64,000 nt of DNA. It comes from an uncultured Actinomycetota bacterium (lineage in GTDB: Bacteria > Actinomycetota > Actinomycetes > Prado026). Under the pieces are notes generated by a model, which was given only the letters and a program-made list of their open reading frames with translations, did not search any database and was not told where the DNA came from. Positions 3,492-57,485 of the stretch are shown piece after piece. Within the stretch, counting starts at the first letter, position 1, and every line of letters starts with the position of its first letter. The stretch is taken from NCBI GenBank assembly GCA_963771835.1, contig CAVYVA010000001.1, positions 23,172 through 87,171 of the forward strand, in the 5' to 3' direction. Position numbers and translations under genes: made by a program.

Positions 3492-5990
3492 GTGTCCGCC
3501 CCCCAGCCGCCGTCGGACCCGTACTCCCCATCCGCCGACCAGCCCGCCGACCAGCCGGCGGACCCGGCCGCGCCGGGCCAGGGGGTCTTCATCCGCATCC
3601 TCAAGCGGCCGCTGACCTGGGCTGTCCTGGTGCTCGTCGCCTGGTGGGTGGTCGGGGCGCTCGCCGGACCGCTGGCCGGCAAGCTGCAGGAGGTGCAGAA
3701 GAACGACAACGCGTCGTTCCTGCCCTCGAGCGCGGAGTCCACCGAGGTCAGCACCCTCCAGCAGAAGTTCGCCCAGAACGAGTCGTTCCCGCTGTTCGTG
3801 CTGTTCGTCCGTGACGGCGGGCTGACCGCCGCGGACCAGCAGTTCGTGACGACGTACACGCAGTCGATCGCGTCCTGGCCGCTGGTGGACGAGGACGGCA
3901 AGAAGCACTCGGGCGGCAAGACGGTCGGCGACTACCTCGAGCCGGGCACCGCTCCGGTCGCGGTGCCGTCCCAGGACGGCAAGGCCGTGCTGGTCAACAT
4001 GTCGGTCAGCGCCGACTCGATCAGCAAGGCGCTGCCGGACAGCACGTCCCCGATCGTCGCGATCGTCGAGACGCTGCGGTTCCACGACAAGTCCGCGCCG
4101 GCCGGGCTCACGTCGTACGTCACCGGCATCGGCGGCATCTTCGCGGACGAGTTCAAGGTGTTCGGCTCGCTCGACACGACGCTGCTGGGGATCACCGGCG
4201 TCGTGGTCGCGGTCATCCTGATTCTGGTCTACCGCAGCCCGGTGCTCTGGTTCGTCCCGCTCATGTCCGCGCTGCTGGCGCTGAGCGCCGCCAGCGGAGT
4301 CGTGTACGTCCTGGCCAAGAACGACGTCCTCACGCTCAACGGCCAGAGCCAGGGGATCCTCACCGTGCTGGTCTTCGGCGCCGCGACCGACTACGCGTTG
4401 CTCCTCGTCGCCCGATATCGGGAGGAGCTGCACTTCCAGGAGAACCACTTCGACGCCATGAAGCGGGCCTGGCGCGGGGTCTTCGAGCCGCTGACGGCGT
4501 CGGCGACCACGGTCATCATCGGTCTGCTCTGCCTGCTCTTCTCGGAGCTCAACTCGAACAAGTCCACCGGGCCGGTCGCGGCGATCGGCATCGCGTGCGC
4601 GCTCGTCACCACCTTGACCGTGCTGCCCGCCCTGCTGGTCATCCCGGCGGTCGCCTTCTACGTCGAGGTCGTCTTCCTCACGTTCCTGCTGTCGGCATTC
4701 GTGCTGCACGCGCCCGCCGTCATCGGCCTCGTGGCGATCGTGCTGCTCCCGTTGATGGTCTTCTCGGGGATCGCGCGCCGGCTGGGACGCGGTCCGTCCT
4801 GGATGCCGTGGCTGGCCTGGCCCAAGGCGCGCTGGGTGTTCTGGCCGAAGATCCCGCGCTTCGGCGCGGAGGACGAGAAGCTCTCCGGGATCTGGGCGCG
4901 GATCTCGGCGTTCATCGGCCGCCGGGCGCGCTGGTCGTGGATCGCGACCTCGGTGCTGCTGCTGGTCGCGGCGTTCTTCGTGACGACGCTGAAGGCGGAC
5001 GGGCTGAGCATCGCCGACTCGTTCACCAGCACGCAGGAGTCGGTCACCGGCCAGGGCGTGCTCGCCGAGCACTTCCCGGCCGGCTCGGGCAACCCGGCCG
5101 TCATCATCGCCAACGCCGACCAGGCAGCGGCGGTCGTCGCGGCCGCGCAGAAGGTGCCGGGGATCGCCGAGGTCGTCCCGTACACCGGCAGCGACTCGCA
5201 TGTCGCCAACCCGCAGCCGAAGGTGGTCGACGGGCTGGTGATGATCGACGCGACGCTGAAGTACCCGTCCGACTCGCCGCAGGCCCAGCAGGCGGTGCAG
5301 GACCTGCGGACCGCCGTGCACGCGGTGCCCGGTGCGGACGCGAAGGTCGGCGGGTTCACCGCGATCAACTTCGACACCCAGCAGTCCTCGCAGCGCGACC
5401 GGCAGGTGATCATCCCGATCACCCTGTTCGTCATCCTGCTGATCCTCATGCTGCTGCTGCGGTCGATCGTCGGACCGGTCCTGCTGATCCTGAGCGTGCT
5501 GCTGTCGTTCGGGGCGACGATGGGTGTCTGCGCGCTCGTGTTCAACCACGTCTTCCACTTCGCCGGCGCGGACTCCTCGTTCCCGCTGTTCGCGTTCGTG
5601 TTCCTGGTGGCGTTCGGGGTGGACTACAACATCTTCCTGATGACCCGCGTCCGCGAGGAGAGCCTGGCGATCGGGACCCGGCGCGGCATCCTCAAGGGGC
5701 TGACGGTCACCGGCGGCGTCATCACCTCGGCCGGGATCGTACTCGCGGCGACGTTCTCGGTGCTCGGCTCGCTGCCGCTGGTGTTCCTGGCCGAGCTCGG
5801 CTTCGCGGTCGCGTTCGGGGTGCTGCTCGACACCCTCCTGGTGCGGACGTTCCTGGTCCCGGCCCTCATGTTCGACGTGGGCCGGCCGATCTGGTGGCCG
5901 AGCCGGCTGGCCAGGGTCGCCGAGCCGCCGGTCAGCGCCGGGGACGACGGCGGCGGTGCCGTCGCGGACGTCCGGCAGCCGGTCGGTTGA
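3492..5990 (+). CDS. MMPL/RND family transporter
   Basis: GAGGA RBS then GTG at 3492; FGAATDYALLLVARYREE and GVDYNIFLMTRVREE motifs; many TM helices. Confidence 0.92.
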   Translation: MSAPQPPSDPYSPSADQPADQPADPAAPGQGVFIRILKRPLTWAVLVLVAWWVVGALAGPLAGKLQEVQKNDNASFLPSSAESTEVSTLQQKFAQNESFPLFVLFVRDGGLTAADQQFVTTYTQSIASWPLVDEDGKKHSGGKTVGDYLEPGTAPVAVPSQDGKAVLVNMSVSADSISKALPDSTSPIVAIVETLRFHDKSAPAGLTSYVTGIGGIFADEFKVFGSLDTTLLGITGVVVAVILILVYRSPVLWFVPLMSALLALSAASGVVYVLAKNDVLTLNGQSQGILTVLVFGAATDYALLLVARYREELHFQENHFDAMKRAWRGVFEPLTASATTVIIGLLCLLFSELNSNKSTGPVAAIGIACALVTTLTVLPALLVIPAVAFYVEVVFLTFLLSAFVLHAPAVIGLVAIVLLPLMVFSGIARRLGRGPSWMPWLAWPKARWVFWPKIPRFGAEDEKLSGIWARISAFIGRRARWSWIATSVLLLVAAFFVTTLKADGLSIADSFTSTQESVTGQGVLAEHFPAGSGNPAVIIANADQAAAVVAAAQKVPGIAEVVPYTGSDSHVANPQPKVVDGLVMIDATLKYPSDSPQAQQAVQDLRTAVHAVPGADAKVGGFTAINFDTQQSSQRDRQVIIPITLFVILLILMLLLRSIVGPVLLILSVLLSFGATMGVCALVFNHVFHFAGADSSFPLFAFVFLVAFGVDYNIFLMTRVREESLAIGTRRGILKGLTVTGGVITSAGIVLAATFSVLGSLPLVFLAELGFAVAFGVLLDTLLVRTFLVPALMFDVGRPIWWPSRLARVAEPPVSAGDDGGGAVADVRQPVG

Positions 5991-10255: not shown

Positions 10256-12035
10256 TCAGAGACCGAGCTCGGCCTCGAACGCCCCGTCCTCGAGCCGCTG
10301 CTTGATCGCGACCAGGAAGCGCGCGGCGTCCGCACCGTCGACCAACCGGTGGTCGTACGTGAGCGCGAAGTAGGCCATCGACCGGATCGCGATGCCGTCC
10401 GTCCCGGTGTCCGGGTCGGTCACGACGACCGGCCTCTTGACGACGGTGCCGGTGCCCAGGATCGCGACCTGCGGCTGGTTGATGATCGGGGTGTCGAAGA
10501 GCGCACCTCGGCTGCCGGTGTTCGTCAGCGTGAAAGTCCCGCCGGACAGATCGTCCGGGGTGATCTTGTTGCTGCGCGTCCGCTCGGCGAGGTCGGTGAT
10601 CTTGCGCGCCAGCCCGGCAAGGGTGAGGTCGCCCGCGGAGCGGATGACCGGCACCAGCAGGCCGCGCTCGGTGTCGACCGCGATGCCCAGGTGCTCCGCC
10701 TCGTGGTAGGTGACCGTGCCCGCCTCCGTGTCGATGCTGGCGTTGACCTGCGGGTAGGTCTTCAGCGCGTCGACCGCGGCCTTGGCGAAGAACGGCAGGA
10801 ACGAGAGCCTGACGCCCTCCCGAGCCTCGAACTCGGACTTGGCCCTGGCCCGCAGCCCGGCGACCCGGGTGACGTCGACCTCGACGACCGTCGTCAGCTG
10901 CGCCGAGACCTGCAAGGACTCCACCATCCGCTGCGCGATCACCTTGCGCAGCCGGGACAACGGCTCGGTCCGGCCGCGGAGGGCGGCTGCGGCCGGCGCG
11001 GTGGACGGGGTGGCCGCCGGCGCCGGCACGTTCGCAGCCGCGGCCGGTGCCGGCGCTGCGGCGGCCGCCCGGGAGGCGGCTTCGGCCCGCTGCCGCTCCG
11101 CGGCTTCGAGCACGTCCTGCTTGCGGATCCGGCCGCCGACCCCGGTGCCGGTGAGCGAGGCCAGGTCGACGCCGTGCTCGGCCGCGAGCTTGCGCACCAG
11201 TGGTGTCACGTACGACTCCTCGCCGCCGCCCGTCGGGGTGGCCGAGGCGGCCGGCGCGGCCGCGGTTGCGGCTGCAACGGGTGCCGTGGATGCAGCGGGC
11301 GCCGGGGCGCGGCGGTGCAGGCGGGCGCGGGGCGCGGTGCAGCGGGTGCAGCGCGGTGCCGGGCCTGGGGCCGCGGCCGTGCCGGCGGCGCCGATCACGC
11401 CGAGGGTGGTGCCCACGGGCACGGTGGCGTCCTCGGCCGCATCGATGGACAGCAGCACGCCGGCGACCGGGGCCGGGATCTCGGTGTCCACCTTGTCGGT
11501 CGACACCTCCAGCAGCGGCTCGTCCAGGGCCACGGCGTCGCCGACGGCCTTGAGCCAGCGGGTCACCGTGCCCTCGGTGACGCTCTCGCCGAGCGCCGGC
11601 AGCACGACCGCGGTGGTCGGCCCGGACGCCGGTGGCGCGGGTGCCGCGGGTGCCGCGGCGGTTGCCGCCGTCGCGGCCGGCGGGTCGGCCGGAACCGGCT
11701 CGGCCGCGGCCGGCACAGCGGGCTGGGCGGCGGCCGGCTCTGCGGGCGGGTCGACCGGCGCCTCCTGCGGCGGAGCATCGGCACCGCTGTCGGCCGGCTG
11801 CGTCGCCGATCACCGCGAGCTCGGCGCCGACCGCGACCGTCTCGTCCTCCCGGGCGACGATGCGGACCAGGATCCCGGTCGCCGGGGCCGGGATCTCGGT
11901 GTCCACCTTGTCCGTCGACACCTCGACCAGCGGTTCGTCCACCTGGACCGTCTCACCCTCCTGCTTGAGCCAGCGGGTGACCGTGCCCTCGGTGACGCTC
12001 TCGCCCAGGGCGGGCATCGTGACGGAGACCGTCAT
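10256..12035 (-). CDS. dlaT: 2-oxoacid dehydrogenase E2 dihydrolipoamide acyltransferase (two lipoyl domains); frameshift at ~11795 and a garbled linker at ~11300-11360
   Basis: Two [18 protein letters not shown] lipoyl domains in different frames, [11 protein letters not shown]3-binding domain, [10 protein letters not shown] catalytic motif. Confidence 0.93.
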
Positions 12036-12056: not shown

Positions 12057-13445
12057 TCAGCCGTGGGTGTGCAGCGGCTTGCCGGCGAGCGCGAGATGCG
12101 CCTCGCCGACCGCCTCGGACTGGGTCGGGTGCGGGTGGATCAGCGAGGCGACGTCGTCGGCGTAGGCCTCCCAGTTGTAGATGAGCTGGGCCTCGGCGAG
12201 CAGCTCGCCGACTCGGGCTCCGACCATGTGCACACCGACCACCGGCCCGTCCACGACCGACACCAGCTTCACGGCGCCGGCGGTCTTGAGGATCTGGGAC
12301 TTCCCGTTGCCGGCCAGGTCGTAGGTGAGCGTGCGCACCTTGTCGTCGCCGTACCGCTCCCGGGCGGCCGACTCGGTGATGCCCACCGAGGCCACCTCGG
12401 GCTCGCAGTACGCGATGCGCGGGACGCCGTCGTAGTCGATCGGGCGCGGGTTCAGCCCGCCGATGTGCTCGGCGACCAGGATCCCCTCGGCGAAGCCGAC
12501 GTGCGCGAGCTGCAGCGTCGGGATGAGGTCGCCCACGGCGTACACACCGGGCACCGAGGTACGGCAGAACTCGTCCACGGTCACGAACCCGCGGTCGATG
12601 GCCACCCCGGCCTCGGCGTACCCGAGGCCGTCGGAGACCGGGCCGCGGCCGACCGCCACCAGCAGGACGTCGGCGTCGAAGGTCTTGCCGCTCTCCAGCG
12701 AGACCCGCACCCCGGTGGCCGTGTGCTCCACCCCGCTGAAGCGGACCCCCAGCTCGAACGCGATGCCCCGCTTGCGGAACGCCCGCTCGAGCAGCTTCGA
12801 GCTGGACTCGTCCTCCAGCGGCACCAGGTGCGGCAGCGCCTCGACGACCGTGACCTCGGCGCCGAACGAGCGCCAGACGCTCGCGAACTCCACCCCGATC
12901 ACGCCGCCGCCGAGGATCACCGCCGACCGGGGGACGTAGTCCATGGTCAGCGCCTGGTCGCTGGTGATCACCCGGGCGGCGTCGATCTCCAGACCGGGCA
13001 GCGTCCGGGCGTACGAGCCGGAGGCCAGCACCACGTGCCGGCCGGTGTAGTCGGTGTCGCCCACGCGCACGGTGGTGGGGGAGACCAACCGGCCCTCGCC
13101 GGCGACCAGGGTGATCCCGCGGCTCTTCACGAGGCCCTGCAGGCCCTTGTACAGCCGGCCCACGACCTGGTCCTTGTACGTGTTCACGCCGGTCATGTCG
13201 ATGCCGTCGAGGGTGGCCCGGACCCCGAACTGCTCGGACTCGCGGGCCGCGTCGGCCACCTCGGCCGCATGCAGGAGCGCCTTGGTCGGGATGCAGCCAC
13301 GGTGCAGGCAGGTCCCACCGACCTTGTCCCGCTCGACCAGGGCGACGCTCAGACCCAGCTCGGCGGCCCGCAGGGCGCACGCGTAGCCGCCGCTGCCGCC
13401 GCCGAGGACGACGATGTCGAAGGTGCCATCGACGGTGTCCGGCAC
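12057..13445 (-). CDS. lpdA: Dihydrolipoyl dehydrogenase
   Basis: GGGSGG, GGTCLHRGCIPTK, HPHPTQSE. Confidence 0.97.
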   Translation of the reverse strand: MPDTVDGTFDIVVLGGGSGGYACALRAAELGLSVALVERDKVGGTCLHRGCIPTKALLHAAEVADAARESEQFGVRATLDGIDMTGVNTYKDQVVGRLYKGLQGLVKSRGITLVAGEGRLVSPTTVRVGDTDYTGRHVVLASGSYARTLPGLEIDAARVITSDQALTMDYVPRSAVILGGGVIGVEFASVWRSFGAEVTVVEALPHLVPLEDESSSKLLERAFRKRGIAFELGVRFSGVEHTATGVRVSLESGKTFDADVLLVAVGRGPVSDGLGYAEAGVAIDRGFVTVDEFCRTSVPGVYAVGDLIPTLQLAHVGFAEGILVAEHIGGLNPRPIDYDGVPRIAYCEPEVASVGITESAARERYGDDKVRTLTYDLAGNGKSQILKTAGAVKLVSVVDGPVVGVHMVGARVGELLAEAQLIYNWEAYADDVASLIHPHPTQSEAVGEAHLALAGKPLHTHG

Positions 13446-20821: not shown

Positions 20822-21607
20822 TCAGACGAACGCGAAGCAGAGCAGAGCCGCAGTCGTGCCGACCTCGATCGTGGCGCCGAGGACGTCGCCGGTCACCCCG
20901 CCCAGCCGGCGGGTGCACCGCCGCACCAGCAGCGCTGCCACGGCCGCGGCGGCTGCGACGGCGACCGCGGACCGCAACGTCAGCCAGCCGCTGCGGTCGT
21001 CGTCGAGCCAGGACGTTCCCGCGCAGGCCACCGCGGTCAGCCCGGTCAGCACCGCGGCCGCGACGGTCGGGAAGGCGCCGGCGAACGGCAGGCCCAGACC
21101 GTCGGTGCGCGCGGCGGGCACGCCGGCCCGGCATCCCCACACGACCGCGGTCCGGCCCGCGGTGACGCCGACCAGCACGCCGAGCCAGCCGGTGCCGCGT
21201 CCGACGGACTCGGCGACGGCCCCGACCTGGACCAGCAGCACCAGCACCACGGTCACGACGCCGAACGGTCCGATGTCCGAGCGGCGCATCACCTCGAGCG
21301 CCTGGTCGGCCGGCCGCCCGGAGCCCAGGCCGTCGGCGGTGTCCGCCAGGCCGTCCAGGTGCAGTCCCCGGCTCAACAGGGCCGTACAGGCGATGGCGAG
21401 CACGGCCGCCAGCCAGGTCCCGGCGACGGAGTGGTGGGTGGCAACGCGGACGCCTTCGAGCACGGCGGCGGCGACCCCGCCGACCGCGGCGCCGACCACC
21501 GGCGTGAGCCACAGCGCGCCTCGGACGACGCCGCGGTCGACCCGCCGCGGCGGCGCGACCCGGACCGCGGTGAACGTACCGAGCGCCAGCCGGAGCGGAT
21601 CGCTCAC
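20822..21607 (-). CDS. cobS: Adenosylcobinamide-GDP ribazoletransferase (cobamide synthase)
   Basis: [32 protein letters not shown]. Confidence 0.95.
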
Positions 21608-22734
21608 CCGTCAGACCCGGCATCGGTCTCCCGGTCGGAGACGCCCGCCTCGTCGAAGGTCGACATCTCGGCCAGCGTGGCTGCCGCCGCCTTGAGCACC
21701 GGCAGCGCGACGAGCGCGCCGGTCCCCTCGCCCAGGCGCAGCCCGAAGTCGACGATCGGTTCCAGGTCGAGGCGGTCCAGCGCGCGCGTGTGCGCCGGTT
21801 CGGTGGAGCGGTGGCCGGCCAGCCACCACTGCCTGGACCGGTACCCGATCCGCTGCGCGACCAGGGCGGCGGCCCCGGAGACCACGCCGTCCAGCAGGAC
21901 CGGGGTGCGACGCACCGCAGCCTGGAACAGGAAGCCGGCCATGGCGGCGATGTCCGGTCCGGCCACCTCGGCGAGCAGGTCGACCATGTCCGCCTGCCGG
22001 GTGCGTCCTCTGCGGGCTGCGTCGCGCACCGCCGCGCACTTGACCATCCAGGCCCGGTCGTCGATGCCCGTGCCGCGACCGACCACGGTGGCGACCTCCG
22101 CGTCGGTGAGGACGGCGACCAGCGTCGCCGACGGCGTGGTGTTGCCGATGCCCATGTCCCCGGCGATCAGCAGGTCGGCGCCTGCGTCGACCTCCTCGTC
22201 CGCGATCGCGATCCCGGCGCGGACGGCCTGCTCGGACTCCTCCCGCGACATCGCCGGGCCGACCGCGATGTCGCCGGTCCCGCGCCGCACCTTGTACGCA
22301 CCCACCCCGGGCAGGTCGGACAGGTCGGCGTCCACGGACAGGTCCAGGACGCGTACGGACGCCCCGGTCAACCTGGCGAGCACGTTCACCGCGGCACCGC
22401 CCGCGACGAAGTTGCGCACCATCTGCGCGGTGACCTCGGGCGGGTAGGCCGAGACGCCGGACGCTGCCACGCCGTGGTCGCCGGCGAAGATGACGACCCG
22501 CGGGCGCTCGACAGGTCGCGGCGGGCACACGCCCTGCACGGCGGACAGCCAGACGGACAGCTCCTCGAGCCGCCCGAGCGCGCCGGTGGGCTTGGTGAGC
22601 CGCAGCTGCCTGGCCAGCGCCTGCGCGCGCACGTCGTCGTCGGGGATCGCCATCGACCGGCTGATGCGGTCGAGCTCGGCGGTCAGGCTCGGCGGCTCGA
22701 GCGCGTCGGTGTCGCTGCCGGTCGGGTCGCTCAC
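21604..22734 (-). CDS. cobT: Nicotinate-nucleotide-dimethylbenzimidazole phosphoribosyltransferase
   Basis: [36 protein letters not shown]. Confidence 0.96.
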
Positions 22735-24140
22735 GCGTACTCCCTCGGAGAGTGGTCCCGGTCGCCCGGGCGGGCTGCTCGCAGGTCCAGCGGCACGCCG
22801 GCGACGACCAGCGTGACGACGTCGCAGACGGCGGCGATCCGGGCGTTGAGCCGACCCAGCTCGTCGCGGAACCGGCGGCCGGACACGGTTCCGGGCACGA
22901 TCCCCGAGCCGACCTCGTTGCTGACGACCACGACCGTGGCTGTCGACGCCGCGAGGGCCTGGACGAGCCGGTCGCTGCGCCGCACCACCTCGGCGGCCGC
23001 GGCGTCGGACGCGGCTGCGGGAGCCCCGTCATCGGCCGCCCACACGCCGGCTTCGTCCATGACGCCGGCCAGCCACAACGACACGCAGTCCACCAGGACC
23101 GAGTCCGTGGCCGTCGCGTCGTCGAGCACCGCGGCCACGTCGAGCGTCTCGACGGTCCGCCACCCGGCCGGCCGCCGGGCACGGTGGTCGGCCACCCGGC
23201 GGACCCACTCGCCGTCGTCGGGTCGGGTGCCGCCGGTCGCGACGTACGTCACGTCGCGTTGCCCGGCCAGCAGCGACTCCGCGTGCACGGACTTCCCGGA
23301 GCGCGCGCCACCGAGCACCAGCGTGGAGGTCCCTCGGGCGGGTCGGCCGAGGACAGTGCCGTCCGGAACGACGCGGGCACCCACGGCGGCGAGCCGACGG
23401 GCCAGCTCGGCCGGGGCGGGGTCGTGATGCCCCAGGTGCACCGCGACGACGTCCGTCGACGCGACCACTGCACCGCAGGCGCGCAGTTCGGTCACCGCGG
23501 CGGCGAAGCTCGCGAGGTCCAGGTGCCGGGTGCCATGGTCGGTCCGGTCACCGAACGACTGCTCCAGCAGCACCACGTCGTACGCCCGGCCGGCCACCGC
23601 GTCCCGGGTCGAGGCAGGCAGCGGTCCGGTGTCGGTGGCGTACAGCACGGTCCCGCCGTCCGGCGCTGTCACGTCGTACAGGACTCCGGGGCCGGCGTGC
23701 TCGTCGCCGTGGTCCGCCTCGAGCACCGCGACGACGTAGCCGCCCAGCTCGAGCCGGTCGCCGGCACGCACCGCCCGTGGACGTACCGGGTCGTCCGGTC
23801 CGATCCAGTCGGCGAACACCGCGACCGCCTCCGGCGGCCCGACCAGGTCCAGCGGCTCGGTCCGGCCCGCCCACGCCCGCGCCAGCAGCGCCATCGGGCT
23901 CGCGTGGTCGGGGTGCGAGTGGGTGAGCAGCAGGTGCCGGACGTCCGCGAGCGAACGCCCGGCCCGGGTGGCGGCGTACGGCACCTCGGGTCCGCAGTCC
24001 AGCAGCAGCCGCCCGTCGACCAGCGCGGCGGTCTGCGCCCGTACGTCCCCGGTGGCCAGCGCGTCCGTGCACAGCCGGCACCGGCAGAAGGCGTTCGGCC
24101 GGCCGCCCGCACCCGCGGTGCCGAGCACGACGACCTCCAT
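22731..24140 (-). CDS. cobU: Fusion: PhnP-like metallo-beta-lactamase hydrolase + adenosylcobinamide kinase/guanylyltransferase (CobU/CobP)
   Basis: N-half: [34 protein letters not shown]-half: GGARSGKS P-loop, [23 protein letters not shown]. Single open frame. Confidence 0.9.
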
Positions 24141-25015
24141 CAGCGTCCCACCGCCGCGGGGCCCGGCTCGAAACCGACCGGGACGTCGAAGGCGGCCCGC
24201 CTCGTGGCCCGGCGCAGGGCGCGCAGCACCGGCCCGCCGAAGGCCAGCACGAGGGCCGCGTTCCCGAGGCCGCGGATCAGGTCCCAGCCCAGCGACGTCG
24301 CCACCGAGTACGCCAGGAACCGGCTGAGGTTCTCCGCCAGCGGTGCGCCCGGCACGAAGGACAGCGACGACGACGTCCCGGTCTGGAACGGCCAGAACCA
24401 CAGGTTCATCAAGAACCCGAACGCGACGCCGCTGACGGCCCCGTACCCGGCCAGCATCACCAGCTCGCGTCGCCCGCGCGCCGGCGGCAGCAGCCCGCTG
24501 AAGAACCCGGTCCAGGCGGCGGCGAGCATCTGGAACGGCAGCCACGGGCCGACCCCTCCGGTCAGCAGGGCGGAGCTGAACATCGTGGTGGCGCCGAGCA
24601 CGAAGCCGAACCCGGGACCGAGCGCGCGCCCGCCCAGGATCAGCACCACGAACATCGGGTTGAAGCCGGTCACGCCGGCGCCGAAGGGACGCAGCGCGGT
24701 GCCCAGCGCGGCCAGGACGCCCAGCATCGCGACGGCCTTCGCGTCCACCCCGCCGGAGGAGATCTCGGCCAGCAGCACCAGGATCAGCAGCGGCAGCAGC
24801 GCGGCGAACAGCCACGGCGCGTCCGCATCGTGCCCGATGCCGGAGCCGGGATGGGCGAGCAGCGGCCAGCCGAACGCGGCGACGCCGACCAGGGAGACCA
24901 GGGCGAGCGCGAGTGCCGGACGCACGCCGATGCGCAGGGCATGCGTACGGCCTGCGGCGGGTCGTGGCGCGCCGGCGCCGGGGTGGCCCGTCGCACGGGT
25001 GACGGTGGTTGTCAT
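24140..25015 (-). CDS. ECF transporter S component (CbrT-like, predicted cobalamin-specific)
   Basis: DAKAVAMLGVL, GPGFGFVLG, GGVGPWLPFQM, TSLGWD; located in a B12-riboswitch operon. Confidence 0.88.
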   Translation of the reverse strand: MTTTVTRATGHPGAGAPRPAAGRTHALRIGVRPALALALVSLVGVAAFGWPLLAHPGSGIGHDADAPWLFAALLPLLILVLLAEISSGGVDAKAVAMLGVLAALGTALRPFGAGVTGFNPMFVVLILGGRALGPGFGFVLGATTMFSSALLTGGVGPWLPFQMLAAAWTGFFSGLLPPARGRRELVMLAGYGAVSGVAFGFLMNLWFWPFQTGTSSSLSFVPGAPLAENLSRFLAYSVATSLGWDLIRGLGNAALVLAFGGPVLRALRRATRRAAFDVPVGFEPGPAAVGR

Positions 25016-26634
25016 CCGGCGGCTCGCAGCGCCTCGGCGACCTCGGCGACGGTGAGCCACGGCCCCGGTGCCAGCACCTTCGCCACCTGCGGTGAGAACG
25101 CGGGGGACCCGACGACGACCTCGGCGGTCGGCCCGTCCGCGACCACCTCGCCGTCGGCGACGACGACGGTGCGGTCGGCGACGTCGGCGGCCAGCTCGAC
25201 GTCGTGGGTGGCGAGCACGACCGCGTGCCCGGCGGCGGCCAGCTCGCGCAGCGTCTGCACCAGCCGCGCCTTGGCCTCGTAGTCCAGCCCTCGGGTCGGT
25301 TCGTCCAGCAGCACCAGTGGCGGCGCGGCGACCAGCACGACGGCCAGGGCGAGCGCGAGCCGCTGCCCCTCGGACAGGTCGCGTGGGTGCCGCTGCGGGT
25401 CGACGCCCGGGCTCAGCCGCCCGAACAGCGCGAGCGTCGAGCCCGCGGCCGTGCCGGCGTCGCGGTCCGCCCCGGCGCACTCGGACACGACGCTCTCGGC
25501 GTACAGCAGGTCGCCGGCGTCCTGCGGGACCAGCCCGACCCGGCGCAGCAGCTGGGGCCCGGTCAGTCCGACCGGGTCCGCGGCCTGCGCGCCGGCCCCC
25601 AGCCGGACCCGGCCGGCCATCGGGGTGGCGGTGCCGACCAGCGCGGAGAGCATCGTCGTCTTGCCGGCGCCGTTGCGGCCCATCAGCGCGACCACCTGGC
25701 CGGCGGCGAGCGCGAGCGACAGACCGTGCAGCGCCACCACCGCGTCGTACCTGACGGTGACGTCCTCGAGCGTGGCGGCCGTCGCGCCGGCGGGCACGTC
25801 GCGACGCACCGGGCGGTGTCCGTCCAGCCGCGCCCGCAGCGGGCCGGCCGCCCGGCGGGCGTCGCGCACGGACAGCGGCAACGGGTCCCAGCCGGCGACC
25901 CGGCCCAGGTGCACCACCGGCGGTGCCACCGACGAGCCGGCCATCACCTCGGCCGGCATCCCCACCTCGGGGGGCGTGGCCGAGCCGGACAGCCGCACCA
26001 CGCGGTCGGCGTACTGCACGACGCGCTCGAGCCGGTGCTCGGCCAGCAGCACGGTCAGGCCGAGGTCGTGCACGAGCCGCTGGAGCGCGGCGAGCACCTC
26101 CTCGGCGGCACCGGGGTCCAGCGCCGACGTCGGCTCGTCCAGGACGAGCACCTGGGGGTGCGCGGTGAGCACCGAGCCGATCGCGACCCGCTGCCGCTGT
26201 CCGCCGGACAACGTCCGCAGCGGCCGCTCCCGAAGCTCCGCCAGGCCGAGCAGGTCGAGCGTCTCCTCGACGCGCCGGCGCATCACGGCGGGCGGCAGGC
26301 CCAGCGACTCCATCGCGTACGCCAGCTCCTCCTCGACCACGTCGGTGACGAAGCCGGCCGTCGGGTCCTGGTCCAGGAACCCGACCACGTCGGCCAGCTC
26401 GCGCGGGGGGTGGTCGCGGGTGTCCCGTCCGGCGACCACGACGCGACCGGTGAGGGTGCCGCCGGAGAAGTGCGGCACCAGCCCGTTGACGGTGCGCAGC
26501 AGGGTCGACTTGCCGGACCCGGTGCTGCCGACGACCAGGCACAGCTCGCCCTCGGGCACGACCAGGTCGACGCCCTGCAGCGCCGGGCGGTCGGCCCCGT
26601 CGTAGGTGACGGAGACGTCCTCGAACCGGATCAC
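25012..26634 (-). CDS. ECF transporter duplicated ATPase (A-A')
   Basis: Two Walker A (GSTGSGKS, GRNGAGKT), LSGGQ/LSEGQ, two LDEPT. Confidence 0.93.
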   Translation of the reverse strand: MIRFEDVSVTYDGADRPALQGVDLVVPEGELCLVVGSTGSGKSTLLRTVNGLVPHFSGGTLTGRVVVAGRDTRDHPPRELADVVGFLDQDPTAGFVTDVVEEELAYAMESLGLPPAVMRRRVEETLDLLGLAELRERPLRTLSGGQRQRVAIGSVLTAHPQVLVLDEPTSALDPGAAEEVLAALQRLVHDLGLTVLLAEHRLERVVQYADRVVRLSGSATPPEVGMPAEVMAGSSVAPPVVHLGRVAGWDPLPLSVRDARRAAGPLRARLDGHRPVRRDVPAGATAATLEDVTVRYDAVVALHGLSLALAAGQVVALMGRNGAGKTTMLSALVGTATPMAGRVRLGAGAQAADPVGLTGPQLLRRVGLVPQDAGDLLYAESVVSECAGADRDAGTAAGSTLALFGRLSPGVDPQRHPRDLSEGQRLALALAVVLVAAPPLVLLDEPTRGLDYEAKARLVQTLRELAAAGHAVVLATHDVELAADVADRTVVVADGEVVADGPTAEVVVGSPAFSPQVAKVLAPGPWLTVAEVAEALRAAG

Positions 26635-27794
26635 CGCCGGTCACCGCCCGCCGGCACGAGGGCGGCGGCATGGTCGCGGCGCGGCGCCGGGCGGGACGGG
26701 TCGCGGGGCCGGGGCGAGACCCACGCGGGCAGGATGCCGACCAGGATTCCCGCGGTCGGCAGCAGCGGCAGCGTCGGCCAGGCCGGCGGCGCGTACTGGC
26801 CGACGAGGCCCGCGACCCCGGCCGCGGCGGCGACGACGAGCGTGCCCGCCGCCACGACCCCGCAGCCGGCGACCAGCCACTCCGGCAGCGCCCACGGGTC
26901 CGGACGGTAGCGGCTGCGCCGGACCCGCCGTCCGGCGACCACGAACCCGGCGCCGGCCACCACCAGGCCGGCCAGCAGCAGCGGCACCCCGAGCACCGGC
27001 AGCCCCGCGACCTGCGGCGAGCCACCCTCGAGCAGCCCGAAGACCCCCGCGCAGACCCCCACGAGCCCGGCGAGGACCAGGGCCGAGGTCAGCCGGCGCG
27101 CGCCCGCGCCGACGCCTGCGTTGCGGCCGTAGCCGCGCGAGTCCATCGCCGCGGCCAGCGTGAGCGAGCGGTCCAGCGCACCTTCCAGGACGGGGACCGC
27201 CACCCCGCGCAGGCCACGCAGCCCCCGGTCCGGGCGGCCGCGCAGTCGGTGCGCCACCTTGACCCGGGTGACGTCCTCGACCATCTGCGGCGCCAGCGTC
27301 ATCGCGACGACCACGGCCACCCCGACCTCGTACAGAGCGGCGGGCACGCACCGCAGCAGCCGGGACGGGTTCGCGAGGGAGTTGGCCGCACCCACGCAGA
27401 TCAGCAGGGTGGCCAGCCGAAGCCCGTCGTACAACGCGCCGAGCAGGTCCTGGACGGTGAGGTCGCCGCCGATCCGGACGCCGCCGGCCCAGCCCGGCAC
27501 CGGCAGCTCGGGGATGTGCAGGATCACCGTCCCGGTGCCGGTCGCGCCGAAGACGACCTGGAAGGCGAGCCGCAGGGCGATCACGACCAGGCCCAGCCGC
27601 AGGAACGCCCCGTACGAGCGGGCCCACGGCGCCGCGGTCCGGCGGGCGGCCACGACATAGGCGGTCACGGCGACGATCAGCAGCAGCAGCAACGGGTTCG
27701 TGGTGCGGCTGGCCGCGGTGGCCAGCCCGAGCGCCCACAGCCACCAGGCCCCGGGGTGCAGCGGCCGGGGCAGGAACGCGGTGCGCAGGCTCAT
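26631..27794 (-). CDS. ECF transporter T component (CbiQ family)
   Basis: LHPGAWW start, AHRLRG and MDSRGYG X-R-X motifs, multiple TMs. Confidence 0.9.
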   Translation of the reverse strand: MSLRTAFLPRPLHPGAWWLWALGLATAASRTTNPLLLLLIVAVTAYVVAARRTAAPWARSYGAFLRLGLVVIALRLAFQVVFGATGTGTVILHIPELPVPGWAGGVRIGGDLTVQDLLGALYDGLRLATLLICVGAANSLANPSRLLRCVPAALYEVGVAVVVAMTLAPQMVEDVTRVKVAHRLRGRPDRGLRGLRGVAVPVLEGALDRSLTLAAAMDSRGYGRNAGVGAGARRLTSALVLAGLVGVCAGVFGLLEGGSPQVAGLPVLGVPLLLAGLVVAGAGFVVAGRRVRRSRYRPDPWALPEWLVAGCGVVAAGTLVVAAAAGVAGLVGQYAPPAWPTLPLLPTAGILVGILPAWVSPRPRDPSRPAPRRDHAAALVPAGGDRR

Positions 27795-28687
27795 GGCGCA
27801 CCGCGGCCGCGGGTCCCGCGCAGCGCCCGTACGGCTGCGGCCCCGCCGACGGCAAGGACGAGCGCCGCTCCGGCCCACGCTCCGACCGGCGGTCCGCCGC
27901 TCGTCCCGCCTCGGTCGGGTACTCCGCCGGCGCCGACAGCCACTGGCTGCGGGTCGCCCGACGACGACCCGGACCCCGTGCCGGTGCCGCCCGGCTCGGC
28001 GCTGCCCGGACCCGGGCTCGGCGTCGTCGAGCCGCCCACGGCTGCCGCGCCGCTGTGCGCCGGACCGGCGGACCCGCCCGTCGAGGGACGGCTGCCGGAC
28101 GCGGTGGGAGCCGGTGCGTGCGAGGTCGGCTTCGGCGTCGGTGGCGGGGTCGGCTTCGGCGAGGGCGGCTGCACGATGACGCCGCACTCACCGGACGGGT
28201 AGCCGTCGATGCCGCACACGAGACCGCTGTCGCTGCGCACCGACGCGTACTGCTGGAGCACGACGGCGGAGCTGCCGTTGTCGGCCACCTGCGCGCAGAA
28301 CGTGTCCACGCCGCGGGGCGGCTTCTGCCCGGGCGGAGCGTCGGCGCTCGTGCCGTAGTCGACGACCAGCCCGACCAGCTTCTGGCCCGACGGCGCGGCC
28401 GTGTGGTGCGCGCAGATCGACGCGTACGAGGCGGTCGCCCGCGGCTTCACCGACCCGGCCGTGCCGCTGACGGCGAACCGCCACCCGTCCACCGATCCCG
28501 CCGGCGGCCGGTAGGTCGCCCCGACCGGCGAGAACGTCCAGCCGCCGGTCGAGGTGCCGTGCCAGTAGGACCAGTAGCGGTACGCGGACGCCGAGGCCGG
28601 CCAGGCTGCGACGGCGGCCGGCGCGAGCGCCGCCGAGGTCGCGACGACCAGCGCCGCGGCCCGGGCGGACAGCCGGCGCCGCGTCAT
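27791..28687 (-). CDS. SCO2322-family secreted, membrane-anchored protein
   Basis: Signal peptide, YRYWSYW..VDGWRF, LVVDYG, LVCGIDGYP..EC, P/S/G linker, C-terminal TM with basic tail. Confidence 0.85.
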   Translation of the reverse strand: MTRRRLSARAAALVVATSAALAPAAVAAWPASASAYRYWSYWHGTSTGGWTFSPVGATYRPPAGSVDGWRFAVSGTAGSVKPRATASYASICAHHTAAPSGQKLVGLVVDYGTSADAPPGQKPPRGVDTFCAQVADNGSSAVVLQQYASVRSDSGLVCGIDGYPSGECGVIVQPPSPKPTPPPTPKPTSHAPAPTASGSRPSTGGSAGPAHSGAAAVGGSTTPSPGPGSAEPGGTGTGSGSSSGDPQPVAVGAGGVPDRGGTSGGPPVGAWAGAALVLAVGGAAAVRALRGTRGRGAP

Positions 28688-30213
28688 GCCTGCCGTGACC
28701 CCCGCCGGCCGAACAGCAGCAGGGCGATGCCGCACAGCAGCAGCAGCGACCCGACGAGTCCGGCGACGGCCGCCCTCGCGCCGGCGCCGGTGTCGGGCAG
28801 CGTGCTCCCGGGGTCGGTCCCCCCACCTGGCGCCGGCGCCACCGTGGACGTCGGCGACGCAGTCGGCGAGGTTGTCGGCGCGGCCAGCGTCACCGTCGCC
28901 GCCAGCCGGGTGGTCAGGTCGCTCCCGCCGAAAGCGGTCGGGTCCTGGCCGCCCGCGGTCGACGCCAGGATCAGCAGGGCCAGCGCCCCCGGCTGGTCGG
29001 CCCCGGACTTCACGACGAACGCGTCCACCTGCCCGGCCAGCGCGGTCAGGGCGCCGGCGACCTGGCTGGACCCGTGCCTGGTCGCGACCAGCGCGACCAC
29101 CGCGTTGGCGGTGCTGCCGAAGTCGGTCTGCCCGGGGTTGAACGGGTCGGGGATGACGTGCCCGTTCGCACCGAGCTCGCGTACCAGGTAGCCCGCGGCA
29201 GCGTCGGCCGCCTCGGCCGGAGTGAGGCCGGCCGTCGACAGCACGTGCACCGGGCCGGCGACCTTCGTGGCGACGGTCGGCGCCTTTGTGACGGTCGGCG
29301 CGACAGTCTTCGGCTGCGCCGGGCTCGCGGTCGGGCTCGCGGTCGCGGTCGGCGGCGTGGCGGCAGCGGTCGTCGCGGGGACGACGGCGACCTTCTTCGC
29401 CGGCGCCGCGGCCGGGCAGGTCAGCACCGGTGAGTCGTCGGCACCGGCCTGCGCTGCGACCGGCAGGAAACCGCCGCCGACGGCCAGCGTCGCCTGCACC
29501 GTCGCGTAGTCGTTCGGGGAGCCGAAGAACGTGAACGCCCCGCGGTCGCCGACCGCGCCCTCGCACCCGACCTGGAGTCCCTGCAGCGCGTCGTACGGGG
29601 TCGGCCCGGCTGCCCCGCCCGCGTGCGGAGCGCCACGCCCGAGCGCGAGGAAGGCGGACAGCCCGAGTGCGGTCGAGTTCGCGTCCGGGTCGTTGCCCAC
29701 CGCGCCGTCCGGGTAGTACGCCCAGCCGCCGTCCGCGCTCTGCTTCGCCGCCAGCCAGTCGACCGCCTTGCCGGCCCGGGTCCCCTGGCCGAGCGCGTGC
29801 AGCGCCTGGGCGGCGATCCCGGTCGAGTTGGTGTCCTCACCGCTGAACGAGGCCGAGTCCGGAACCTGGCAGGCCGCCGCGAGCGAGGCGCGGAACGCCT
29901 CGAACCCGCCGTCCGCGCACTGCTGCGCGAGCAGCCACGCGACCGCCGCCGGCGCCGGCGTCCGGCCTGCCGCGACCGTCGCGAGCAGGGCGAGCGACTG
30001 GCGGTAGGCGCCGTCGAAGGACGGGTCCTGGCCGCCGAACAGCCCGACCTTCGCGGGGTCGGTCGTGGTGGGCGGAACGCTCGACGCCGTCCGGCCGGAC
30101 GCCACGGCCGTGCCGGCGAGCGGCAGGACGAGCGCGAGTCCGGCCGCGACGAGGGGCAGGCCGAGGCGTGGGACGCGACGGCGGGCTGATGGGCGGTGCG
30201 CGGTGCTGGTCAC
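28684..30213 (-). CDS. Secreted prenyltransferase/squalene-oxidase-repeat (alpha/alpha barrel) protein with LPXTG anchor (SCO2321-like)
   Basis: WLLAQQCADGGF, WLAAKQSADGGW, DTNST/DANST repeats; LPDTG + TM + RRGSR; GAAGGA RBS before GTG. Confidence 0.85.
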   Translation of the reverse strand: MTSTAHRPSARRRVPRLGLPLVAAGLALVLPLAGTAVASGRTASSVPPTTTDPAKVGLFGGQDPSFDGAYRQSLALLATVAAGRTPAPAAVAWLLAQQCADGGFEAFRASLAAACQVPDSASFSGEDTNSTGIAAQALHALGQGTRAGKAVDWLAAKQSADGGWAYYPDGAVGNDPDANSTALGLSAFLALGRGAPHAGGAAGPTPYDALQGLQVGCEGAVGDRGAFTFFGSPNDYATVQATLAVGGGFLPVAAQAGADDSPVLTCPAAAPAKKVAVVPATTAAATPPTATASPTASPAQPKTVAPTVTKAPTVATKVAGPVHVLSTAGLTPAEAADAAAGYLVRELGANGHVIPDPFNPGQTDFGSTANAVVALVATRHGSSQVAGALTALAGQVDAFVVKSGADQPGALALLILASTAGGQDPTAFGGSDLTTRLAATVTLAAPTTSPTASPTSTVAPAPGGGTDPGSTLPDTGAGARAAVAGLVGSLLLLCGIALLLFGRRGSRQA

Positions 30214-30372
30214 GTGAGGTGTCCTTCGGGTGAGCGATCCGTCGACCGACGCCCGCGCACCCCCGGATGACGACGACGCCCCCGTCACCTGAACGGTGAC
30301 GAGGGGCGCGGGCGCGGGTCCGGTGGGACCCGGGCTCCGCCCCGCAGACCTCGGCGGAAACGTGGAGCCGCT

Positions 30373-30481
30373 CGCCTCGGGGCAGGTATCCCGGCTCGCC
30401 GCCCGCACCCGGCTCGGGATGCGCGCGGCCTACGGTTGCGGGTCAGCGCCGGAGTTCGACCGGCTTCCCCTGTCCGAGGCG
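30373..30481 (-). ncRNA. Cobalamin (B12) riboswitch
   Basis: Minus strand: cgcctcgg-acAGGGGAAgccGGTcgAActCCggcgCTGaCCCGCAACcGTAgg...GAGCCgGgataCCTGCc-ccgaggcg, with B12-box elements and an 8-bp closing stem. Confidence 0.92.
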
Positions 30482-56250: not shown

Positions 56251-56421
56251 CCTCCGCTGAGTTCAGGATGGCGTCGGTCGGGCCGGTTCAGGTCTGGTCG
56301 GGGGTGTCCTGGAGCCGGGGACCCAGGTTCCTGGGGTGAATCCGACCGGGTGCGTGCTGCCTGGTTGGTAGGGCGTTCTTCCCCGCCCGAACCCGACAGC
56401 TAACCCGGTAGGCGGCCGAGG
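56251..56421 (+). ncRNA. Cyclic di-AMP (ydaO/yuaA) riboswitch
   Basis: CCGCTGA..GGAGCCGGGGACCCA..TGGGGTGAATC..GGTAGGG..CCCGAACCCGACAGCTAACCCGGTAGGCGG upstream of an NlpC/P60 gene. Confidence 0.9.
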
Positions 56422-56441
56422 AAGTGAGGAGTGCCGCCTCA

Positions 56442-57485
56442 GTGGCGTCCACCCGAGCTGGTTCCCGTCTTGTGCGGGTGTTGTTGGTGTCTGTGGTGGT
56501 AGCTGGTCTGGGTGCGGTGCTGGTGCCGCAGTCGGGGTCGGCGGCGCCGCGGCCGACGTTGGATCAGGTGCGGGCGCAGCTGGCTGCGCTGGGTGCGCAG
56601 GGTGAGGTGGCGCAGGAGCAGCTGAACCAGACGCGGGTGGCGTTGGCTGCCGGGCAACGGGTGCTGACCCAGGTGAACGCGCGGGTGGCCCGTTCGCAGG
56701 CGCTGGTGGATGCGGCGCAGGCGCAGGTCGGGGTGCTGGCGTCGGCGGCGTACCGCTCGGGCGGGGTGGACCAGACGTTGGAGCTGTTGCTGGCGGACAA
56801 CCCGACGCAGTTCCTGGAGCAGATGACGGCGCTGGACCAGGTGTCGAGCCGGCAGACGCAGGTGCTGCGGGCGGCGGCGGTGGCCCAGCAGCGGTTGGCG
56901 CAGGACAAGCTGGCGGCGGCGCAGCAGGTGAAGCAGTTGCGCAAGCTGTATGCGGCCGCGACAGCGCAGGCGAAGGCCGTGCAGGCGGCGCAGGACAAGC
57001 TGAGCGCCTTGCTGGCGTCGTTGACCGCCGCGCAGCAGGCCGCGCTGCGGGCCAGCGCCCGCGCGGCAGCGATGGCGCGCGCGTCCAGCCACACCTCGCG
57101 CAGCCACATCCGTTACGGCGGTGGGTCGTACAGCGGCAGCATCGGCGGACGGGTCGTCGCCTACGCGATGTCCAAGGTCGGCGACAGCTACTCGTGGGGC
57201 GCCACCGGGCCGAACTCGTTCGACTGCTCCGGCCTGACGATGCGCGCCTACGCGCAGGCGGGCATCTCGCTGCCGCACTCGTCCAGCGCCCAGTTCGGGT
57301 CGGGCCGGCACATCTCCCGCGGCAGCCTGCAGCCCGGCGACCTGGTCTTCTTCTACAGCCCGATCCACCACGTCGGCATCTACATCGGCGGCGGGATGAT
57401 CGTGCACGCGGCCAACCCCGGCGAGGGCGTCACCACCGCCCCGCTGGACTCCATGCCGTACTCCGGCGCGGTCCGCCCCTACTGA
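56442..57485 (+). CDS. Secreted coiled-coil NlpC/P60 (C40) peptidoglycan endopeptidase
   Basis: Signal peptide, coiled coil, YSWGATGP..FDCSGL, HVGIY, HA; start 56424 or 56442. Confidence 0.93.
   Translation: MASTRAGSRLVRVLLVSVVVAGLGAVLVPQSGSAAPRPTLDQVRAQLAALGAQGEVAQEQLNQTRVALAAGQRVLTQVNARVARSQALVDAAQAQVGVLASAAYRSGGVDQTLELLLADNPTQFLEQMTALDQVSSRQTQVLRAAAVAQQRLAQDKLAAAQQVKQLRKLYAAATAQAKAVQAAQDKLSALLASLTAAQQAALRASARAAAMARASSHTSRSHIRYGGGSYSGSIGGRVVAYAMSKVGDSYSWGATGPNSFDCSGLTMRAYAQAGISLPHSSSAQFGSGRHISRGSLQPGDLVFFYSPIHHVGIYIGGGMIVHAANPGEGVTTAPLDSMPYSGAVRPY

Follow-up and report, generated by a model that had tools for sequence, protein, structure and literature searches.

We describe here a gene that joins a PhnP-like metallo-beta-lactamase (MBL) domain to CobU, together with its operon and its phyletic pattern, in a 64,000 nucleotide (nt) stretch of DNA (the window) from an uncultured Actinomycetota bacterium (assembly GCA_963771835.1, contig CAVYVA010000001.1, forward-strand positions 23,172 to 87,171). 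The fusion probably helps actinobacteria that are unable to make B12 to dismantle B12-like cofactors from outside and build them up again. We propose, tentatively and by analogy with CbiR, that the MBL domain acts as a phosphodiesterase on imported cobamides, opening their nucleotide loop and passing cobinamide phosphate on to CobU.

The MBL-CobU fusion gene

The gene lies at window positions 22731–24140 on the minus strand, where a single open reading frame (ORF) of 469 codons runs from an ATG at 24140 to a stop at 22731–22733, and its first ten residues agree with the consensus start of 49 homologues. Residues 1–262 (23355–24140) form the MBL domain, with a match to Pfam Lactamase_B_2 at residues 44–221 (E 7.5e-14, 52.2 bits against a cut-off of 27), and a short linker of residues 263–270 (23331–23354) leads to the CobU domain at residues 271–455 (22776–23330). 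The original prediction had called the N-terminal part PhnP-like, and a profile of 49 fusions searched against solved structures agrees, with E. coli PhnP (3g1p) as the best MBL relative (E 6.5e-20), followed by an unnamed MBL-like protein (1.5e-9), an arylsulfatase (5.1e-9), PqqB (8.4e-8), RNase Z (1.2e-6) and Apyc1 (4e-5). PhnP is a phosphodiesterase that acts on 5-phospho-alpha-D-ribosyl cyclic phosphate, and its activity and metal sites are taken here as background.

Each of the motifs named in that prediction was located in the translation. The MBL half has LGTAG at residues 6–10, CRCRLC at 19–24 (C19, C21 and C24 of a CxCxxC motif that aligns with the PhnP Cys motif; 24069–24086), HSHPDH at 74–79 (the metal-binding HxHxDH motif with H74, H76, D78 and H79; 23904–23921) and HLGHH at 235–239, and the further ligand or acid positions H144, D170, H206, H235 and H238 (within 23424–23720) align with LNHS, SDTAG, NHCDL and HISHQ of PhnP. 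All ligands of the PhnP-like MBL subgroup are thus present, namely HxHxDH, the later H, D and H, and a Cys3-His site, in which the CxCxxC cysteines and H238 presumably bind a structural zinc. The CobU half, which had been described as intact, covers all 168 of the 168 positions of Pfam PF02283 (residues 273–453, E 1.5e-51, 174.7 bits against a cut-off of 27) and scores above the cut-off of the NCBIfam CobU equivalog PRK05800 (171.4 against 161 bits). It has a GGARSGKS P-loop at residues 277–284 (23289–23312) and, within ADHRARR, H319 (23184–23186), which we take to be the guanylylated histidine of CobU. G277, G282, K283, S284 and H319 are invariant in all 49 homologues, and the domain is predicted to have both the kinase and the guanylyltransferase functions.

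We considered whether the single reading frame might be an assembly or indel artefact joining two genes, which for practical purposes is refuted by the recurrence of the same fusion elsewhere. MBL and CobU share one stop-to-stop frame at 52 of 59 genome loci (an MBL match with some 9.5 kb of flanking sequence in either direction, from 59 genomes of 48 genera in the window's own class) and are fused at 70 of 80 metagenome loci, and both domains are present in 119 of the 120 best database matches. Within the window there are no stop codons in any of the three minus-strand frames between 23280 and 23400, as had been claimed, and the phase of third-position G+C is constant over 22710–24060. Nothing was found in favour of an artefact beyond an in-frame GTG at residue 275, one of three near the junction (residues 253, 275 and 285). 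As to the further claim that there is no plausible separate cobU start, the GTG at 275 is an implausible though formal candidate, because it lies two residues before the P-loop and the preceding strand would be lost. A soil-metagenome contig of 275 nt (run X1, record 3) bridges the junction independently, spanning 23102–23376 with five substitutions and no gap. Reads had also been proposed as a check for an indel splitting the domains, and no insertion or deletion was listed in any of four read runs, which yielded short contigs only (best share 0.26, none across the whole gene), so that read support for the junction is weak and the recurrence in other genomes is decisive. Identical 151-nt contigs occur in two RNA libraries, which does not amount to a demonstration of transcription, and stretches without read cover carry no information either way.

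Organization of the operon

Every gene from about 30470 down to 20822 is on the minus strand. At the head of the operon is a cobalamin riboswitch (30385–30469, minus strand; Rfam RF00174, 37.9 bits against a gathering score of 31.5), followed by a gene for a surface protein with terpene-cyclase-like repeats (28684–30300, minus strand; start codon uncertain). This is a relative of the SCO2321 family that scores 225 bits, under the cut-off of 300. A hydrophobic segment at the N-terminus, linkers rich in Pro, Thr and Ala, and an LPDTG at the C-terminus with a membrane anchor behind it make it resemble a sortase-anchored protein. It may serve to capture corrinoids for the importer encoded downstream, which is of the energy-coupling factor (ECF) type. 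The importer genes are those for the ECF T component (26631–28187, minus strand; a 518-aa ORF of uncertain start with a CbiQ domain at residues 144–354), a double ABC ATPase (25012–26634, minus strand) and the S component (24140–24880, minus strand; start uncertain), which has no match in NCBIfam or the PDB. Those parts of the T component ORF beyond the CbiQ domain are either extensions or the product of a mis-set start. We also note that the segment between the surface protein and T component genes (28188–28826, minus strand) has no clear coding frame, the ORF listed there having an Arg-rich translation and no family match.

The stop of the S component gene overlaps the MBL-CobU start (TGATG), and the MBL-CobU stop overlaps the GTG start of cobT (GTGA), so the fusion gene sits in a translationally coupled operon. 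CobT (21604–22734, minus strand) scores 435.8 bits against the TIGR03160 cut-off of 319.3, and CobS (20822–21607, minus strand) matches Pfam CobS with 150.2 bits and falls under the cut-offs of the NCBIfam CobS models. A consensus scan for promoters and terminators gave nothing. Elsewhere in the window there is a cyclic di-AMP riboswitch (56286–56429, plus strand; 69.3 bits, gathering score 38) that overlaps with the beginning of an ORF at 56412–57485.

Distribution and relationships of the fusion

The fusion is not a rarity. A word-index search returned 3947 proteins at E 1e-3 or better among 8000 candidates scored, and among the best 120 of these, for which the domain content is known, 119 contain both PF12706 and PF02283. 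Those that are named are annotated solely as bifunctional CobU. With the MBL half alone, a search of 1.84 billion representatives gave 1737 relatives at E ≤1e-3, of which 79 reach E ≤1e-30, and of 94 near-full-length MBL domains 42 are fused to CobU, 43 are stand-alone and nine have other tails. One stored homologue (P0125) falls in generic MBL clusters only (Atlas).

A quick tree of the 94 domains has two clades with 95% support in the Shimodaira-Hasegawa-like approximate likelihood ratio test (SH-aLRT). Clade A (64 domains) holds all of the fusions, including two proteins (P0133 and P0140) in which the MBL domain is joined to CobT (DBI_PRT) instead of CobU, and clade B (30 domains) consists of stand-alone proteins only. 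In a FastTree analysis of 151 domains rooted on clade B, the ECF-linked fusions are basal and the BtuFCD-linked and unfused forms are nested among them; support is low and we claim no order.

A cob linkage of the clade B sister group was rejected, with no CobU, CobT or CobS within 10 kb of the MBL gene at any of 80 loci in Clostridia and Treponema retrieved with an alignment of clade B members, and the cobamide link is therefore a property of the actinobacterial clade only. The clade B genes (L022–L101) have a loose set of neighbours, with LacI regulators at 16 of the 80 loci, phosphotransferase system (PTS) components at 15 and GH32 enzymes at 10, and their substrate may be a sugar phosphodiester.

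Gene order and importer association

An ECF S component gene is directly upstream of the MBL at 38 of the 59 genome loci, made up of 32 of the 37 in CbiB-negative genomes and six of the 22 in CbiB-positive genomes, a homologue of the surface protein is encoded at 23, and a BtuFCD-type importer set is directly upstream at one. At one locus CobU follows about 600 nt after the MBL, and three others (L202, L212 and L213) have cobT-cobS no more than about 6 kb from an unfused MBL. Of seven ECF-type loci tested, five have a cobalamin riboswitch ahead of the surface protein gene, and among seven loci without an ECF set one riboswitch was found, on the opposite strand.

The 80 metagenome loci, which come from a scan with four unfused clade A proteins, include eight without CobU downstream and two cut by the contig end in addition to the 70 fusions. 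Directly upstream of the MBL there is an ECF S component at 42, a BtuFCD-type set at 16, a BtuD-like ATPase alone at one, other genes at 15 and a contig end at six. The BtuFCD sets were confirmed by Pfam (Peripla_BP_2, FecCD and ABC ATPase) at L253, L255 and L181, and six of seven BtuFCD-type loci tested have a cobalamin riboswitch shortly before the gene for the binding protein. At five loci (L241, L247, L254, L255 and L262, where L254 and L255 look like one organism) an unfused MBL is directly behind BtuFCD with no CobU downstream. The MBL domain thus accompanies importers of two unrelated kinds, both under riboswitch control, also where it is not joined to CobU. We note separately that the BtuFCD-MBL-CobU operon of L253 has two S-adenosylmethionine (SAM) riboswitches downstream of it (10992–11085 and 12470–12563) and a gene for a Cys/Met pyridoxal phosphate (PLP) enzyme upstream (3772–5007).

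These contexts bear on the possibility that the MBL domain hydrolyses some other phosphoester of the loop pathway, such as an alpha-dimethylbenzimidazole (alpha-DMB) adenine dinucleotide (with alpha-ribazole phosphate as the product), a cyclic or esterified imported alpha-riboside, or cobinamide-GDP in a proofreading role. The assignment to a phosphodiesterase family is consistent with this, as are the CobT fusions and the lack of any NCBIfam or PDB match for the ECF S component. CobT may use NAD, according to a review (PMC12713380), and the resulting dinucleotide would need cleavage by an enzyme not identified there. However, the commonest partner of the MBL is CobU and not CobT, and the unfused copies behind BtuFCD under cobalamin riboswitches point to the corrinoid itself. 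We consider this alternative rather improbable.

CbiB bias and catalytic decay

In a sample of 401 genomes of the phylum, CobU is matched in 199, and among the matches listed those that reach into the MBL half all come from the class to which the window belongs. A sample of 401 genomes of this class has the MBL in 112 (E ≤1e-15), CbiB in 170 and CobU in 271 (both over cut-off). The MBL is carried by 76 of the 103 genomes with CobU and without CbiB, against 34 of the 168 with both, an enrichment that is descriptive and not statistical, is overstated because the counted genomes are related, and depends on CbiB calls for which absence in an incomplete genome is no proof of absence. Ten unpublished genomes are included in these tallies (G082, G268, G405, G422, G427, G433, G440, G630, G671 and G740), and without them the values are 74 of 100 CbiB-negative and 33 of 163 CbiB-positive genomes. 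None of the 59 and 19 regions fetched is from an unpublished genome; L129, from G082, was scanned as a plain CobU locus, and none of our conclusions depends solely on the unpublished genomes.

Conservation within the MBL domain is uneven. C19, C21, C24, H238 and D48 do not vary among the 49 fused proteins, whereas catalytic positions are degenerate in nine of them. Of the complete domains at 149 loci, 96 of the 97 with an importer gene directly upstream have an intact HxHxDH, against 33 of the 45 without one. The 13 degenerate copies all belong to CbiB-positive genomes from four lineages, and ten of them come from a single genus. In this genus (L106–L115; genomes of 7–10 Mb, with 22 of 22 sampled genomes CbiB-positive) a shortened, dead MBL is fused to CobU at all ten loci, and the remnant keeps the Cys motif and has lost HxHxDH, H144, D170 and H206.

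The persistence of dead domains suggests that the MBL fold itself seems to matter for CobU, and it raises the alternative that the domain is mainly a zinc-stabilised scaffold that aids CobU assembly or docking (e.g. to CobS or the importer), with hydrolysis irrelevant. The invariant zinc-site residues alongside the decayed catalytic ones, and the retention of the remnant throughout one genus, are as expected of a scaffold. Against this, all catalytic ligands are intact in the window protein, the HxHxDH motif is nearly universal in importer-linked copies, unfused copies with no CobU to support persist behind importers, and plain CobU works alone in many genomes and in all of the solved structures (179–202 aa). 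A role confined to scaffolding is improbable in our estimation.

Cobamide genes of the source genome

The source assembly (3.82 Mb in eight contigs) is 82% complete, and within that coverage it has no CbiZ (PF01955), no CbiB, no PhnJ (PF06007), and no CobQ or BluB over cut-off. It encodes a single CobU, eight B12-binding domains and a PduO-type adenosyltransferase. The organism looks like a cobamide user that is unable to make the corrin ring and builds the nucleotide loop only.

The absence of a CobC gene from the operon, which had been noted before, was borne out, since CobU, CobT and CobS are encoded there and no histidine phosphatase is. One explanation is that the MBL domain is the missing last enzyme of loop assembly, a non-homologous replacement of CobC that removes the 5′-phosphate from adenosylcobalamin-5′-phosphate (AdoCbl-5′-P) or alpha-ribazole phosphate, and the operon would then encode all four loop-assembly steps. 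The source genome has nine histidine-phosphatase matches, of which none reaches the CobC equivalog cut-off (TIGR03162; best 121 bits against 162.9), and its two best CobC-like proteins are unmatched within about 9.5 kb of the MBL at the 59 loci. In some cases the MBL is joined to CobT or lies next to cobT-cobS, the enzymes that make the CobC substrates, and the PhnP substrate is a 5-phospho-alpha-D-ribosyl compound that resembles alpha-ribazole phosphate. Moreover, one MBL-less producer (G125) has a histidine phosphatase gene adjoining cbiB; its product, encoded at G125:C12:184901–186350, scores 86 bits to the CobC model and is a candidate CobC of that genome.

However, going by the general chemistry of the family, the closest characterised relatives of the MBL domain are phosphodiesterases and not monoesterases. 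Histidine-phosphatase paralogues are also plentiful, with seven to ten scoring 100–145 bits to the CobC model in every genome examined, with or without the MBL. A step common to producers and salvagers does not predict the skew towards CbiB-negative genomes, and neither the loss of motifs only in CbiB-positive genomes nor the unfused copies behind BtuFCD without CobU downstream are predicted by it. We regard replacement of CobC as unlikely, and as the main rival to loop opening. The anticorrelation with cobC that had been proposed as a check speaks for neither side, as the cut-off of TIGR03162 is reached in none of five MBL-positive CbiB-negative genomes and in none of five MBL-negative CbiB-positive genomes.

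A proposed role in opening imported cobamides

The association with importers, the enrichment in genomes without CbiB, the stand-alone copies behind BtuFCD and the restriction of decay to CbiB-positive genomes all argue for an MBL domain that acts on imported corrinoids. The original proposal, that it cleaves the loop phosphodiester of foreign cobamides and channels the product to CobU, is supported as far as an action on imported corrinoids goes; the substrate, the bond cleaved and the channelling are inferred. We put forward as a tentative possibility, neither remote nor secure, that the domain represents a third, non-homologous class of cobamide-remodelling enzyme, built onto CobU.

In the mechanism that we propose, the fusion would be one polypeptide with two catalytic halves and stand at the centre of a module for corrinoid salvage, which would be expressed when adenosylcobalamin runs low. 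The importer, ECF-type here and BtuFCD in other lineages, would bring corrinoids in, and a binuclear, PhnP-like MBL would hydrolyse the nucleotide-loop phosphodiester of complete, unwanted cobamides. Cleavage is predicted to leave the alpha-riboside with a 3′-OH and the aminopropanol with the phosphate, so that (adenosyl)cobinamide phosphate is formed, a product assignment based on analogy with RNase Z, with PhnP chemistry and with CbiR. The fused CobU would turn cobinamide phosphate into cobinamide-GDP, its kinase also taking free cobinamide, CobT would activate an available base, and CobS would close the new loop. The Cys3-His zinc site may add a structural role for CobU, which would explain the retention of dead copies.

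Several observations weigh against loop opening, in addition to the relatedness and incompleteness of the counted genomes and the lack of any cob linkage in the sister clade noted above. The known PhnP substrates are small cyclic phosphodiesters. The ECF S component might import a base or alpha-ribazole and not a corrinoid, and fusion or adjacency to CobT and CobS, as at locus L248 with the order ECF S component, MBL and CobT, fits a substrate made by these enzymes at least as well. BluB is under cut-off in the source genome and in five of five MBL-bearing CbiB-less genomes, so that the new lower base must be external or a purine. At three clade A loci (L200, L201 and L209) there are no cob genes near the MBL. 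Finally, six salvage operons of the same layout (L222, L224, L228, L231, L233 and L234) have plain CobU and no replacement gene, and the MBL domain is therefore not essential to the salvage module. Because of the decay pattern and these plain-CobU operons, the catalytic function looks salvage-linked: by its distribution it appears useful in salvage, dispensable for producers and not essential to the module.

The fusion bears on how most non-producers deal with the mixed cobamides of their environment. The literature consulted names only CbiZ and CbiR as loop-opening enzymes, with CobC or CobZ for the last step, and states that cbiZ is missing from more than 90% of corrinoid-requiring bacteria (PMC7733943) and that very few Actinobacteria are predicted to salvage precursors; the 103 genomes of 401 that have CobU and no CbiB contrast with this last statement. 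Among the papers available for full-text search, none was found that describes an MBL-CobU fusion or an MBL enzyme of cobamide metabolism. The fusion is nonetheless common and is concentrated in CbiB-less genomes under the annotation of CobU alone, and in it a fold and a type of task that are both familiar appear in an arrangement that has gone unrecognised. If loop opening is correct, genomes now scored as plain cobinamide salvagers could use and rebuild complete foreign cobamides, and predictions of cobamide use in soil communities would change. The fusion would also be a clean case of substrate hand-over through gene fusion, and the operon a compact importer-plus-rebuilding module for engineering. 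Should the MBL domain perform the CobC step instead, it would fill a hole in pathway annotation. With existing E. coli and liquid chromatography-mass spectrometry (LC-MS) assays, the MBL-CobU fusion makes the remodelling question directly testable.

Comparison with known systems

PhnP of E. coli (3g1p, 3p2u) is like the N-terminal domain in having an MBL fold that aligns over its full length (query 2–269 to chain 4–254), and both have GT..G.P..C.C..C near the N-terminus, HxHxDH, and the H, D, H and H positions that come later. The relationship is not one of orthology, since the N-terminal half, although PhnP is its best NCBIfam match, scores 42.6 bits against a TIGR03307 equivalog cut-off of 272.25, and no PhnJ was found in the genome at 82% completeness. 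The domain also differs in being fused to CobU and in its setting, which is one of cobamide salvage and not phosphonate use, with cob and transporter genes as its neighbours in the window. In its C-terminal half the protein resembles CobU/CobP (e.g. Salmonella CobU, 1c9k and 1cbu), with a full-length CobU that includes the P-loop and the conserved His. However, the solved chains are 179–202 aa and have no N-terminal domain, and thus no fused form has been solved, whereas the window protein has 270 additional residues.

CobC could occupy the same place in the pathway, its reaction being the sole loop-assembly step not otherwise encoded in the operon. It is unlike the MBL domain in fold and machinery, being a histidine phosphatase and a monoesterase, and the fusion protein has no TIGR03162 match. 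The original statement that CbiZ and CbiR use other folds stands, as the window domain matches MBL families only and PF01955 is absent from the fusion protein. CbiZ, an adenosylcobinamide amidohydrolase, also starts remodelling by opening the loop region, but it cleaves an amide and then needs CbiB.

The closest functional parallel, if our proposal is correct, would be with CbiR of Akkermansia muciniphila. According to PMC7733943, CbiR acts as a phosphodiesterase on cobamides, its gene neighbours cobU, cobT and cobS in an organism that is a non-producer, and its product enters the pathway at CobU. Unlike the MBL domain described here, CbiR is a TIM-barrel enzyme from the AP endonuclease 2 superfamily and has no CobU attached. 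The two would be alike in cutting the loop phosphodiester of cobamides taken up by an organism that produces no corrinoids itself.

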